Part shown: positions 29,499-37,136 of the stretch, piece by piece
Layout of the letters: each line of letters opens with the position of its first letter
How positions within the stretch are numbered: the first letter of the stretch is position 1
Assembly (NCBI GenBank): GCA_000004695.1
Contig: CM000154.2
Location: 640,001 to 704,000 of the forward strand
Source of the DNA: Dictyostelium discoideum
Taxonomy: Eukaryota
Direction: 5' to 3'
Length of the DNA stretch: 64,000 bases
Position numbers and translations under genes: made by a program
The notes under the pieces: generated by a model
Seen by the model: only the letters and a program-made list of their open reading frames with translations
Databases searched by the model: none
What the model was told of the DNA's origin: nothing

Positions 29499-30273
29499 AT
29501 GGAAGATGAAAAAAATGAAAATTTAATGACTTTCATTCAATTTTGTGCAACATTTATAACCATAACTTTATTTATTATGCCATTGTAAGAAAATGAAATT
29601 ATTTTTTTTTTTAAAAAAAAAAACATTCAAAAATTATTAACATTCATTTTTATTATTATTATTATTATTATTATTATTATTATTATTTTATGTTAGGAAA
29701 ACAATTAGATTAATTATAGAAAAAAAAAATGTTGGAACTGTTGCAGGTTTACAATTTATATCATCAGTATTGAATTGCTTTTTATGGATATCATATGCAT
29801 TGTTAACGAGTAATACAACAATGTTATTTGTAAATTCAATTGGAATGATGTTTTCAATTTATTATGTTTTTAATTATTGGAAAAATATAAACCAAGTTAG
29901 AGCATCCAGAGATTATTTAAAGAAAGTTATGATAGCTTGTGTTTTAGCTATAACGATAATATCAATTTCATATTATAATACAGTGGATGATTTAGATACT
30001 AGAATTTCAAGATTGGGATTTCTATCGAGTGTAGTATGTGTATTAATGTTTGCATCACCATTAGAGAAAATGGCGATTGTAATTCAATCTAAAAATAGTG
30101 AAGGAATGATTATCAACGTTGCAATATTATCATTACTATGTGGTCTATCTTGGACAATCTTTGGTTTACTTTTAAATGATATTTATATTTATTTACCAAA
30201 TATATTAGCTTCAATTTTATCATTTGTTCAATTAACTTTAATTAAATTATATCCACCACAAATATTATTATAA
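29499..30273 (+). CDS. SWEET (MtN3/saliva) sugar transporter; 2 exons: join(29499..29584,29697..30273)
   Basis: The N-terminus MEDEKNENLMTFIQFCATFITITLFIMP is followed by a GTAAGA donor, and a tgttag acceptor leads to KTIRLIIEKKNVGTVAGLQFISSVLNCFLW... There are seven predicted TM helices typical of MtN3/PQ-loop. The intron carries (ATT)n. Confidence 0.8.
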
Positions 30274-30634
30274 AAAATAAAATAAAATAAATAAATAAAC
30301 AAAACATATGTATTATAAAAAATTTATTTATCATCTTTATTTTTGTTAATTTCATCAGATGATTCTTTTTTTTTGACTGTTTTTTCAAACCCAAATAAAA
30401 TAAGAGTGTTTAGTGATTAGTTATGCTCCACCCTCCATTTTGGATCATCGGTCTAGGCAAAACTGTTTTATATTCCACTGCACAGATGTAATTATTTAAT
30501 ATTCTTGAAAAGTTAAAATGTTGGTGATTATTCAAAGATCATTATTTTTCTGCAATTGGCGCCTTTTTTTTTATTTTTTTATAATTTTTTTTTTAATTTT
30601 TTTTTTTTAATTTTTTACAATAACAACTTTACAG

Positions 30635-31351
30635 GATGAAGATTTAAATACTCTTATATTGCTCGACGATTTTGGAGGTGGTGGTGATGGTCAAGCATTT
30701 TCTGCTTTAACAATTAATACCAATAATTTGGTTGTCGTCAAATTTTATAAAAACAATGATTCAAGTGAAAAAGTCTTGATTGATTCAATTAATAAAGAAA
30801 GTGAATGTTTGAATAAAGTTTATGGTCTGTATACTTTGGTCACAAAAATGGCATCAATTGATTGTTTGATTATGCCTCACTTCAAAATTGCTGATGAATC
30901 AGACTGGAGTAGCAAAAAATTTGAAGATAAAGTTTCAAAAGCCTGCATCAAGTTTGCCAATCGTGGTTATTTCCACAATGATTTAGACCGCTGCCATGTA
31001 GCAAAAATGAAATATAAAAATACTACTGAAGTTGTTTTTATTGATCTTTATAGAGTCGAAAAAATAAAAGATAATCAAAAAAAAGAAAAAGCTGATGCAA
31101 TGTTTAATACTTTATATGGAAACTCAACACCACTCGTTCACTATTCCTCATCTTCATCCCCTTCTTCATCCTCTTCTTCATCCTCTTCAAAAAGACCACC
31201 AAAAATTAAAGTACAAAAGAAAAGAAATACGCAATATTTTAAAAAAACAGCCTCTTCTAAAATCCCTCCAAAATTTAGAACCAAACTATTAACATTTCAT
31301 ACCCCTGAAAAGGATCCATCTTTTAAAAAAACTCTTGTAAATAAAAAATAG
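30635..31351 (+). CDS. divergent protein-kinase-like domain protein; 3' exon only, with the upstream exon(s) not located
   Basis: A ttttacag acceptor at 30634 is followed by LILLDDFGGGGDGQAFSALTINTNNLVVVKFYKNN (G-loop/VAIK-like), then FANRGYFHNDLDRCHV (HRD-like) and VFIDLYR (DFG-like). The C-terminus is Ser/Lys-rich. No clean first exon was found in 30380-30600. Confidence 0.4.
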   Translation, partial: DEDLNTLILLDDFGGGGDGQAFSALTINTNNLVVVKFYKNNDSSEKVLIDSINKESECLNKVYGLYTLVTKMASIDCLIMPHFKIADESDWSSKKFEDKVSKACIKFANRGYFHNDLDRCHVAKMKYKNTTEVVFIDLYRVEKIKDNQKKEKADAMFNTLYGNSTPLVHYSSSSSPSSSSSSSSSKRPPKIKVQKKRNTQYFKKTASSKIPPKFRTKLLTFHTPEKDPSFKKTLVNKK

Positions 31352-31430
31352 TATAGTTTAAATAAAATTTTATTTGTGTGATTAATTTTTAGTATACTTC
31401 AAGAAAATTTTTTTTTTTTTTACAATGAAA

Positions 31431-31458
31431 AGCGTCCTTGGTTAAGTGGTTACACTTT
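31431..31458 (+). other. tRNA-like 5' fragment (GCGTCCTTGGTTAAGTGGTTACAC) with no anticodon or T arm; probably a relic
   Basis: An acceptor-stem-like 7-mer plus a D-loop-like AGTGGTTA are seen. There is no GGTTCGAATCC anywhere downstream, so it is not a functional tRNA gene. Confidence 0.2.
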
Positions 31459-31691
31459 ATTAATAATAAAGTTTTTTAAATCATTAAAATTATATTTAGA
31501 TCAATGAAAATAATTAAACATAATTAAACATAGTTAAACATAAATAGATAATATTATAAATAGTTTACAACAATACATTCTTTATTATAAATAATATCAA
31601 CAATAATACCATTTTTAAATGATTCCTAGCAATGTTACAAAAACTTCCCTATTTACTTGAACCAGAGACAGGGGGAGGATTTAATTTAAAA

Positions 31692-35045: not shown

Positions 35046-35099
35046 GTTTATTTTATTTAAACTGGGTGCCTGCAAACATTATCTCATCGACCGATTTAT

Positions 35100-35255
35100 C
35101 GAATTTTAATACTAAAATCTTAAAAACTAGAAAGAAAAATAATAATAATAATAATAATAATAATAATAATAATTATAATAATAATAATAATAATAATAAT
35201 AATAATAATAATAATAATAATAATAATAATAATAATAATAATAACAACACCTTAT
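35100..35255. repeat. (AAT)n microsatellite, about 50 units
   Basis: Seen directly. Confidence 0.95.
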
Positions 35256-35523
35256 TTGAAAATTCAAATTAAAAAAAAGAAATAGCTTTACATTTTAAAA
35301 TTAAAATTCATAAATAAAACCATTATAAAAATATTGAAGTATATCAATAGGTTTAATTTAATTATTGTTTATTTTATAATAAAAAAAAAAAAAAAAATGA
35401 AAATTAATAAATAAAAATAATTAAAATTCTATATTAAAAATAAATATAAAAAAAATAAAAATAAAAAAGATTGTTTTTTAATTACCATTTCTTTTATAAA
35501 AAAATAAATAAAAAAATAATACC

Positions 35524-35762
35524 ATAATAAAGATAATGTTTGCATCACCATTAGAGAAAATGGCAATTGTAATTCAATCTAAAAATAGTGATGGAATGAT
35601 TATCATTTTACTTTTAAATGATATTTATATTTATTTACCAATCCTTCAATTTTATCATTTGTTCAATTAACTTTAATTAAATTATATCCACCACAAATAT
35701 TATTATAAAATAAATAAATAAATAAATAAATAAATAAACAAAACATATGTATTTTAAAAAAT
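35524..35762 (+). pseudogene. 5'-truncated duplicate of the last exon of the SWEET transporter gene (copy of 30047-30273) with a 54-bp internal deletion
   Basis: The match to 30047-30370 is near-identical except for a deletion of caacgttgcaatattatcattactatgtggtctatcttggacaatctttggttt and a few substitutions. There is no upstream exon and no start codon. Confidence 0.65.
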
Positions 35763-37136
35763 TTATTTGTCATCTTTATTTTTGTTAATTTCATCAGATG
35801 ATTCTTTATTTTGATCTTGTTGTTGTTGTTGTTGTTGCTGTTTTTCAAAATGGAAATTACCATGATAATCTAATCTTTTAATTACAAAATCATCAGTTTT
35901 TGGGAATGGTTCATTAATTGAATCATCATTTGATTGTTGTGGTTCAATTCCTTGTTGTTGTTGTTGTTGTGATAATGTAACACTATTATTTTCATTTGTT
36001 AAAATTGAAGGTATTGAAGAATCATTATCAAATTTATAACCAAATGAACTTGTACCAGAAATTTCACTAAAATGTTTTTTTGCAGAACCACGTTGTAATG
36101 GTTTTTGTTGTGATTCATGTGGTGCCCAACCGATTAAATAAATGATTTGAAAAGTTGCAGGAATTGAATTATTATCTTCATTACCATATAAATGTTTATA
36201 GATTGCAGATGCAGCTAAGAATGTATCTTTACTTGTATAGTTTCTTCTTTTTAAGATTGCATTATTTTCACCCATATTTTGTAAATCTCTCATTAATACA
36301 AACATATTATCATAATTTATTGTAATCTTTTCAGTGTCCACTGTTGGTAATGTGTATCTATTCTTTGATAAAATGTTACCAATATCACTAATCTTTGTAA
36401 ATGGTGATACATGTGGACTAAATCCACCCTCTCTTTCAATCTCTGCTAAATATAATGAATCTTTTAATTCCATCAATGTATCCTCACCAAATAACGATGC
36501 CAAAAACACACCATTTGGTTTTAATAATCTCTTTAATCCTCCAAAAACTCCTGGTAAATCATTTACCCAATGTAATGATAAATTACTTATAATTAAATCT
36601 AAACTTTGATCTTCAATACCTTCAATTTTATCTTCTAAACTATTAACTAATATTTTTGTAGGTTTAACTTTATTATTATTATTATCATCTTCATTCTCTT
36701 GAGAGACATTATTATCATCTCTATATAATAATTCTTTTGATGATTCAACCATATAATATTTATCAATTTTTGCACCTTTTTCTTGTATATATTTAAATAA
36801 TGCTCCATTTCTACTACCAAAATCTAAAACATTACCACATTTTATATCTTTAATATCCTTTTTTAATAAATTAATTAGAAACCTTTTTTTTTTTTTTTTT
36901 TTTTTTTTTTTTTTACATACTAAAATTCTATCAGCTAATCTATCAGCAACTTCATTCATTAAATAATCATAATGTTTTGGGTCATCAACATTTGTAACTG
37001 TATTATTTTTTTGAATAGTTTTTACATTTGTATCAAAAATTGTCATTTTCGTATAATTTGAATATTGTCTTGTTTGATTCCAATCTTTGGAAAAACATTT
37101 TAAATTAAATCCTTTTCTAAATGTTGTTCTTAACAT
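35763..37136 (-). CDS. ndufaf5: NDUFAF5 (mitochondrial complex I assembly factor 5, SAM-dependent methyltransferase/hydroxylase); 2 exons: complement(join(35763..36857,36921..37136))
   Basis: It aligns to human NDUFAF5 along the domain. [71 protein letters not shown] matches [78 protein letters not shown] matches ATYQIYYMIGWKYHESQ. A GTATGT donor at 36920 and an aaaaag acceptor at 36858 flank an intron that is almost pure poly(A)31. The N-terminus looks like a mitochondrial presequence. Confidence 0.85.
   Translation of the reverse strand: [457 protein letters not shown]

Follow-up and report, generated by a model that had tools for sequence, protein, structure and literature searches.

The closest described counterpart of the rearrangement reported here is tandem duplication–random loss (TDRL) in animal mitochondrial DNA (mtDNA), in which a set of genes is likewise duplicated head to tail and one copy of each is lost, changing gene order and keeping orientation; the TDRL literature that we found is almost exclusively mitochondrial. 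Microhomology-mediated tandem duplications and complex rearrangements, generated by microhomology-mediated end joining (MMEJ) or by fork stalling and template switching and microhomology-mediated break-induced replication (FoSTeS/MMBIR), occur in other eukaryotic nuclear genomes. The Dictyostelium TRE retrotransposons, for which short target duplications or deletions have been described, sit beside a tRNA gene, at a distance of ~50 bp, TRE5 on its upstream and TRE3 on its downstream side (PMC3159450). Here, we analysed a locus in a 64,000-nt stretch of the Dictyostelium discoideum genome (GenBank assembly GCA_000004695.1, contig CM000154.2, forward-strand positions 640,001 to 704,000; hereafter the window), in which a SWEET gene and an NDUFAF5 gene are separated by an OYE gene and other DNA, and each carries one copy of a 0.3 kb direct repeat. 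The probable cause of this arrangement is a microhomology-mediated tandem duplication followed by complementary loss of the redundant copies.

The window, which belongs to the AX4 lineage, was compared with itself and with 10 loci (L001–L010), oriented with NDUFAF5 on the plus strand. These include three further D. discoideum assemblies (L001, of the AX4 lineage, L008 and L009), two 'D. cf. discoideum' assemblies (L005 and L010), D. citrinum (L002), D. firmibasis (L003/L006) and D. dimigraforme (L007). No published account of the rearrangement at this locus, or of the new assemblies, was found in the literature.

The SWEET–NDUFAF5 junction occurs twice

An earlier reading of the window from its letters alone (the original prediction) had reported a repeat at 30047–30370 and 35524–35808, with one 54-bp deletion in the second copy. 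Self-blastn of the window recovered both copies as its top dispersed repeat, with limits corrected to 30044–30373 (copy A) and 35534–35812 (copy B). Two alignments make up the pair: 35607–35812 against 30165–30373 (213 nt, 92.5%, E 8e-80) and 35534–35605 against 30044–30115 (72 nt, 97.2%, E 4e-28). Homology reaches 30389 and 35849 once a 23-nt (CAA)7GA deletion in copy A is allowed for; the 13-nt extension of copy A that this adds, CTGTTTTTTCAAA, is not significant by itself (262 of 2,000 shuffles equalled its score), and we accepted it because L008 and L009 show the intervening (CAA)n tract. Relative to copy A, copy B has not a single 54-bp deletion but two, one of 48 nt that keeps the reading frame and one of 7 nt that shifts it. 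Approximately eight substitutions separate the copies, indels and an ATTT microsatellite excluded, amounting to ~3% difference at aligned non-repeat sites. The repeat and the genes that it touches are as follows, copy numbers referring to the duplication argued for below:

29499–30273, plus strand: SWEET (SWET1_DICDI, DDB_G0287763), intact; exons 29499–29584 and 29697–30273; MtN3_slv, E 1e-24
30044–30389: copy A; last 230 nt of the functional SWEET coding sequence (CDS), 50 nt of intergenic DNA and the minus-strand relic of NDUFAF5 copy 2
35534–35849: copy B; SWEET pseudo-exon (35534–35708), 54 nt of intergenic DNA and the functional NDUFAF5 3′ end (35763–35849)
35763–37136, minus strand: NDUFAF5 (DDB_G0287769), copy 1, the survivor; intron 36858–36920; 436 aa

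On its minus strand, copy A encodes a 16-residue counterpart of the NDUFAF5 C-terminus. The unused NDUFAF5 codons that had been noticed beyond SWEET are present as this relic, with a stop codon at 30324–30326 (minus strand) and not at 30322; 13 C-terminal residues are readable, followed by a +1 A frameshift, by the (CAA)7GA deletion between 30376 and 30377, and by FEKQ codons at 30377–30389. Copy B continues, as predicted, into the last codons of NDUFAF5 on the minus strand, its stop codon (35763–35765) and its 3′ flank. The SWEET piece adjoining NDUFAF5 is indeed a dead fragment, carrying the 48-nt and the frameshifting 7-nt deletions; to call it fused to the NDUFAF5 3′ end overstates the case, this adjacency being the preserved ancestral one.

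When changes were polarised with outgroups, the SWEET part had acquired one synonymous change in copy A, against two deletions (one frameshifting) and ~4 substitutions in copy B. The NDUFAF5 part showed the reverse, with the repeat deletion, the frameshift and one substitution in copy A and a single synonymous change in copy B. Each overlap copy is thus conserved where it serves the adjacent live gene and is decaying in its remaining half. The NDUFAF5 3′ terminus lies on duplicated DNA, as had been proposed, and ndufaf5 and SWEET both keep native 3′ flanks there. We consider it likely that the 0.3 kb repeat, which is the junction where NDUFAF5 and SWEET meet tail to tail, is what both copies of a larger duplicated unit have preserved; the ~100+ nt of native 3′ flank retained on each side would represent the terminator or 3′ untranslated region (UTR) of the two convergent genes.

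Gene order in related Dictyostelium

The two cf. discoideum assemblies, D. citrinum and D. dimigraforme share the order GCV_H< GCV_H< OYE> NDUFAF5> <SWEET (arrowheads, orientation). In the D. discoideum assemblies L001, L008 and L009, which all carry the same rearrangement as the window, it is GCV_H< NDUFAF5> … OYE> … <SWEET. D. firmibasis keeps NDUFAF5> <SWEET together, with GCV_H–OYE ~22 kb off and inverted. Wherever NDUFAF5 and SWEET are unsplit (four taxa, five assemblies), they lie tail to tail with CDS ends 56–76 bp apart. This makes the convergent pair the ancestral state, in agreement with the original prediction: it is seen, 3′ ends nearly abutting, in D. citrinum, D. firmibasis, D. 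dimigraforme and both cf. discoideum assemblies, and the position of OYE upstream of NDUFAF5 is likewise ancestral. In D. purpureum, a comparison that the earlier reading had suggested, the gene that follows NDUFAF5 downstream is not SWEET.

The DNA between the repeat copies includes the following segment:

31671–33636, minus strand: OYE segment, copy 2, the survivor; the gene and ~0.5 kb of native 5′ flank ending in T20 (33617–33636)
31692–33096, minus strand: OYE gene; exons 31692–32633 and 32722–33096; Oxidored_FMN; 438-aa product P0244

Five segments of the window locus have counterparts at the ancestral locus of cf. discoideum:

Window 37644–40000, L005 7035–9338: upstream region
Window 35817–37328, L005 11478–13036: NDUFAF5 and its promoter
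Window 35534–35845, L005 13053–13418: copy B
Window 31671–33632, L005 9469–11427 (94.6%): OYE and its 0.5 kb 5′ flank
Window 29465–30373, L005 13086–13979: SWEET and copy A

The OYE gene also matches D. citrinum (L002 8093–9730, 88%), 5′ flank included, and D. discoideum has no OYE at the ancestral site between GCV_H and NDUFAF5. The OYE of the 5.2 kb block that separates the repeat copies is the orthologue of the ancestral upstream neighbour of NDUFAF5, and is native DNA.

As a separate observation on the old OYE–NDUFAF5 interval, a 30-nt element (the ATTTAATTAATCACTGGTTTTGGTTTCATTCC region) at window 37320–37349 is 97% conserved with D. firmibasis (L006 11378–11407). It lies 53–82 nt downstream of OYE in D. 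firmibasis and ~190 nt upstream of NDUFAF5 in D. discoideum, where it is no longer beside OYE; it may serve that intergenic region as terminator or promoter.

The head-to-tail joint

A third segment of the locus, intergenic DNA from upstream of OYE that we term u′, is present twice in D. discoideum:

35385–35539, minus strand: u′2, second copy of OYE-upstream intergenic DNA, ending at the duplication joint
37567–37719, minus strand: u′1, original copy beside GCV_H in the ancestral position, colinear with u′2

u′2 is colinear both with L005 ~9287–9445 and with u′1 at the old site, with landmarks in the order ACATTATCTTTAT…TAAAAGAAATGGTA…AAAAACAATCTTTT…GAATTTTAATTATTTTTA…AATTTTCA-polyT. Its local-alignment score lies 4.9 standard deviations (SD) above dinucleotide shuffles, against which u′ alignment significance was scored. 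Indels common to u′1 and u′2 in D. discoideum are not found in cf. discoideum.

At 35533|35540, SWEET sequence meets OYE-upstream sequence (SWEET…AAACATTA|TCTTTAT…OYE-upstream; the same joint is also given as SWEET …GCAAACATTA|TCTTTAT… u′), sharing a 6-bp microhomology, TAATGT at 35534–35539 (ACATTA on the minus strand), that is common to SWEET and u′. The joint unites L005 ~13420 (SWEET) with L005 ~9287 (OYE-upstream), a single novel junction of two ancestral sequences that sets the distal end of the unit head to tail against its proximal start. The duplicated unit is thus bounded, in our favoured estimate, by L005 ~9287 and ~13420 (~4.13 kb), and it probably ran from the proximal ~180 nt of OYE-upstream DNA (u′) through the rest of the OYE 5′ flank, OYE and NDUFAF5 to take in the last third of SWEET. 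In L009, u′2 begins at the same nucleotide as in AX4 and runs unbroken into OYE copy 2.

L008 and L009 carry a different insertion of ~1–1.5 kb at the joint, which in L009 includes a GCV_H 5′ fragment. A larger unit (at least 4.46 kb), suggested by this fragment after NDUFAF5 in L009, was considered and rejected: the start of u′2 is identical in L009 and AX4, and the GCV_H piece is therefore a later insertion at the joint. The insertion (L009 11581–12689; L008 11463–12390) also contains small minus-strand open reading frames (ORFs), for example one of 96 aa ending …SEEDSEYEYVYESEPGVINCNHSNKIRVWDYECFHRFKKVGYI.

Relics of the lost copies

If the unit was duplicated whole, one OYE and one NDUFAF5 have since disappeared, and their places are marked by two segments:

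37335–37566, minus strand: OYE copy-1 scar; filler F (37335–37549) and a short native stub (37550–37566)
30390–31670, plus strand: filler K in place of the body of NDUFAF5 copy 2; carries the DUF5898 gene DDB_G0287885

Relics were found at three predicted places, namely the 5′ flank of OYE copy 1, the 3′ end of NDUFAF5 copy 2 and the partial SWEET; the body and promoter of NDUFAF5 copy 2 are not among them. At the old OYE site, L008 and L009 keep 140 nt of OYE copy-1 5′ flank (L005 9473–9611) and then filler F, and AX4 has lost a further ~225 nt relative to them. Filler F itself (~215 nt, relatively GC-rich) is shared by AX4, L008 and L009 and is not found in cf. discoideum or D. citrinum. The NDUFAF5 copy-2 3′ relic lies beside SWEET in AX4, L008 and L009, and has decayed differently: AX4 retains FEKQ, has no (CAA)n and is frameshifted, and L008 and L009 retain a long (CAA)n. 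Of filler K, 30858–31670 is common to L008 and L009, from which 30374–30857 is missing. A SWEET fragment follows NDUFAF5 copy 1 in all strains, spanning 175 nt in AX4 and 40–62 nt in L008 and L009. On the ancestral coordinates, OYE copy 2 ends at L005 11427 and the DNA upstream of NDUFAF5 copy 1 starts at L005 ~11455–11511, ~30–80 nt apart and astride an A19 tract.

We also considered an exactly complementary deletion and retention of OYE, as in a cut-and-paste event. This fails on the 5′ side, where L008 and L009 hold 140 nt of flank, the AX4 boundary being a secondary deletion.

In NDUFAF5, the length of the C-terminal poly-Gln (CAA)n tract differs greatly between assemblies, with 8 Gln in AX4 (35814–35837) and ~23 in cf. 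discoideum (L005 13013–13080); the dead relic of L008/L009 has ~40 CAA units (L008 15833–15945).

Retrotransposon tail and later events

The OYE-upstream DNA of copy 2 is interrupted in the AX4 lineage:

33637–35384 (1.75 kb), plus strand: AX4-lineage insertion inside u′/OYE-upstream copy 2; non-LTR tail, unassigned DNA and (AAT)n

Within it, a 5′-truncated non-long-terminal-repeat (non-LTR) ORF2 tail (34215–34799, the last ~191 codons) precedes poly(A) at 34806–34860 (A55). The tail shares 96% identity with the C-terminal end of P0257, an RVT_1 protein, and its remote relatives carry Exo_endo_phos (APE) and RVT_1 domains. The insertion is present in L001 and missing from L008 and L009; because these two are rearranged and lack the element, the retrotransposon tail is a later AX4-lineage passenger and not the cause of the rearrangement. 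The 48-nt and 7-nt deletions and the loss of (CAA)n likewise arose later, in the AX4 lineage. The earlier label of TRE remnant holds for a non-LTR ORF2 with poly(A); the tRNA-gene association does not, ARAGORN having found no tRNA gene in the window. The fragment may nonetheless be a TRE derivative.

Directly 5′ of the retrotransposon tail, 33913–34199 consists of a GC-richer stretch of ~260 nt followed by T25, which matched no protein, and no DNA at the loci compared; it might represent a fragment of a second element, in the opposite orientation.

Timing of the rearrangement

Over the three genes of the locus, p-distances were 0.017 between AX4 and L008/L009, 0.021 between AX4 and L005, 0.028 between L008 and L005, and ~0.085 to D. 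citrinum from AX4, L008/L009 or L005. A four-point comparison grouped AX4, L008 and L009 against L005, with an internal branch of ~0.004. AX4, L008 and L009 have the joint and both fillers, F and K, in common; the duplication and both losses therefore fall on their internal branch, after the split from cf. discoideum. The ~3% difference between copies A and B is compatible with that timing.

Proposed history and alternatives

In the history that we favour, ~4.13 kb of GCV_H< OYE> NDUFAF5> <SWEET would have been duplicated in tandem after the cf. discoideum split, the head-to-tail joint forming at the 6-bp microhomology ACATTA. The intermediate would have read GCV_H – [u′ OYE1 NDUFAF5-1 SWEET-frag] – [u′ OYE2 NDUFAF5-2] – SWEET. 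OYE1 would then have been deleted, with ~0.2–0.27 kb of filler in its place, and NDUFAF5-2 deleted save for its last ~20–40 codons, with ~1.3 kb including the DUF5898 gene in its place. OYE and NDUFAF5 would thereby have swapped order with orientations unchanged. How many deletion events there were, and in what sequence, is likewise a reconstruction.

Several observations weigh against tandem duplication and loss. We infer a complete NDUFAF5 copy 2 that has never been seen: the interval between OYE copy 2 and copy A gave no significant match to its body or promoter (a poly-T match of that interval to the NDUFAF5 intron was dismissed as low complexity). Filler F has no source in the window or the 10 loci, and filler K no counterpart at the ancestral locus and no close DUF5898 homologue among 5.8e9 proteins. 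Alignment statistics for the u′ duplication are weak (z 3.1–4.9), the DNA there being extremely AT-rich. Under independent deletions, the ends of OYE and NDUFAF5 astride the A19 tract are a mild coincidence, which could be explained by constraint within the ~300-nt intergenic region or by homopolymer fragility. Finally, strain and species labels are those of the GenBank titles.

One rival is a duplicative insertion, in which a break between NDUFAF5 and SWEET received a copy of [u′–OYE] only (~2.1 kb, perhaps together with the DUF5898 filler). The ends of the break would have been staggered or resected by ~0.33–0.41 kb and then filled, leaving a very long target duplication, and the original OYE would have been lost later. 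In a related variant, a single MMBIR/FoSTeS-like event would have passed over OYE, copied NDUFAF5 into SWEET, returned to u′, copied OYE and reached the NDUFAF5 tail by way of K; in neither case would a complete NDUFAF5-2 ever have existed. The missing trace of an NDUFAF5-2 body or promoter is then expected. The boundary between filler K and the NDUFAF5 relic is the same in AX4 and L008/L009, and fillers F and K stand at both 'deletions', as at template-switch or end-joining junctions. OYE2 ends and the NDUFAF5-1 flank starts astride the same A19, and the internal branch available for all events is short (~0.4%). However, this account demands either an unusually long target duplication, of 0.33–0.41 kb, or several coordinated switches, and the sole filler-free junction is precisely the joint expected of a simple tandem duplication. 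Moreover, OYE and u′ were once present twice, as the OYE1 flank in L008/L009 attests, so that post-duplication loss is needed in any case. We regard this account, in either form, as unlikely.

A more compact scenario, which we find improbable, makes the whole swap one replicative template switch at homopolymers. Replication would have skipped OYE and copied NDUFAF5 and part of SWEET; at ACATTA it would have switched to a template 4.1 kb back and copied OYE, before a templated detour deposited (by relocation or creation) the lineage-specific, intact DUF5898 gene. The overlaps of ~0.1–0.3 kb would have been kept by selection as the terminator or 3′ UTR of convergent genes with ancestrally interdigitating 3′ ends.

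The original prediction had the two genes split by insertion or duplication of the 5.2 kb block. If that block (DUF5898 gene, OYE and retrotransposon remnant) were foreign, its insertion possibly driven by the retrotransposon, the 0.3 kb repeat would be a target-site duplication. A direct repeat does bracket DNA that includes a retrotransposon tail with poly(A), and the ancestral locus has no counterpart of the DUF5898 piece or of part of the spacer. Against insertion of such a block, OYE with its ~0.5 kb flank is the native upstream neighbour, the inner right edge is native OYE-upstream DNA (u′2) standing head to tail with SWEET, and L008 and L009 are rearranged yet lack the retrotransposon piece. 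With inner edges native and spacer content differing between AX4 and L008/L009, the locus does not have the structure of a transposon with a target-site duplication; 0.3–0.4 kb is out of keeping with TREs, whose target duplications or deletions are short (PMC3159450), and the window offers no tRNA gene as target. This explanation is very improbable.

That the second 0.3 kb copy is an assembly artefact of mis-joined or duplicated reads, for which nothing was found in favour beyond the region being AT-rich, homopolymer-rich and hard to assemble, is scarcely credible: the two or three indels and ~8 substitutions that distinguish the copies are distributed according to function, the independent AX4-lineage assembly L001 has the identical structure and equals the window over 9 kb bar three homopolymer lengths, and mis-assembly, which the earlier reading had asked to be excluded, is excluded because two further strains carry the rearrangement, each with its own decay.

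Genes and other repeats of the window

The identities first assigned to SWEET, OYE and NDUFAF5 hold, on MtN3_slv, Oxidored_FMN and identity to Q54JW0, respectively. The spliced SWEET translation (220 aa) is an exact match to P0249. NDUFAF5 is a complex I assembly factor with a class I S-adenosylmethionine (SAM)-methyltransferase fold. Its product here is 100% identical to P0001/Q54JW0, has orthologues across eukaryotes and matches Methyltransf_11/23/25 (Pfam), combining a methyltransferase domain with orthology. DDB_G0287769 has been treated as functional ndufaf5, with a knock-out phenotype in D. discoideum (PMC3655813).

The gene within filler K is less familiar:

~30518–31538, plus strand: DUF5898 gene DDB_G0287885; exon 1 ATGTTG at 30518–30523, main ORF 30659–31351

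Its product matches Pfam DUF5898 (E 3e-37), and P0241 maps to 30629–31504. The label 'kinase-like' that it had been given finds no significant support in sequence matches, DUF5898 alone being significant: the only kinase family match was Kdo/WaaP kinase, at E 0.029 and 14.3 bits against a 21.3-bit cut-off. No PDB sequence match was found, and no close homologue in a collection of 5.8e9 proteins. DDB_G0287885 is intact in the AX4 lineage only, L008 and L009 being without the 5′ 484 bp (exon 1 and ~80 codons); the truncated gene lies at L008 15091–15874 and L009 14758–15596.

Next to the locus, GCV_H (glycine cleavage H protein) is amplified locally (window ~37800–39300; L006 7547–17198), the D. 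discoideum complex having two tandem genes and D. firmibasis five or more in the surroundings of OYE, and the neighbourhood seems duplication-prone. Elsewhere in the window, self-comparison found a 167-nt direct repeat (53133–53299 and 53334–53500, 96%) and a 156-nt perfect-register palindrome (60996–61151, 91%).

Comparison with known systems

The locus reconstructs, at nucleotide resolution, how two adjacent nuclear genes swap places, and, as a structural marker, the rearrangement distinguishes D. discoideum sensu stricto from the 'cf. discoideum' assemblies. There is also a practical side, in that the 3′ flanks of SWEET and of ndufaf5, a disease-model gene, occur twice, 5.5 kb apart, which matters for the 3′ homology arms used in knock-out or tagging.

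Among the systems introduced at the outset, TE target-site duplication by TRE5 or TRE3 resembles the locus in having a direct repeat around a 5′-truncated non-LTR ORF2 tail with poly(A). Here, however, the repeat spans 330–410 bp, the flanked DNA is mostly native, no tRNA gene is nearby, and the retro-element is missing in other strains that bear the repeat. MMEJ and FoSTeS/MMBIR rearrangements share with the locus a short microhomology, here the 6-bp ACATTA joint, together with filler at deletion junctions and breakpoints near long homopolymers; here these may reflect one complex event or several in succession.

The likeness to TDRL extends to a pseudogene and intergenic relics that mark the lost copies here too. 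Four differences stand out: the locus is on a nuclear chromosome and not in mtDNA; the unit ends within a gene, so that the partial SWEET was dead from birth; the losses come with filler DNA, including the whole DUF5898 gene; and the complete second NDUFAF5 is putative. The way in which gene order probably changed is one already known, and the locus is an unusually complete nuclear example of it, with relics that are polymorphic among strains.

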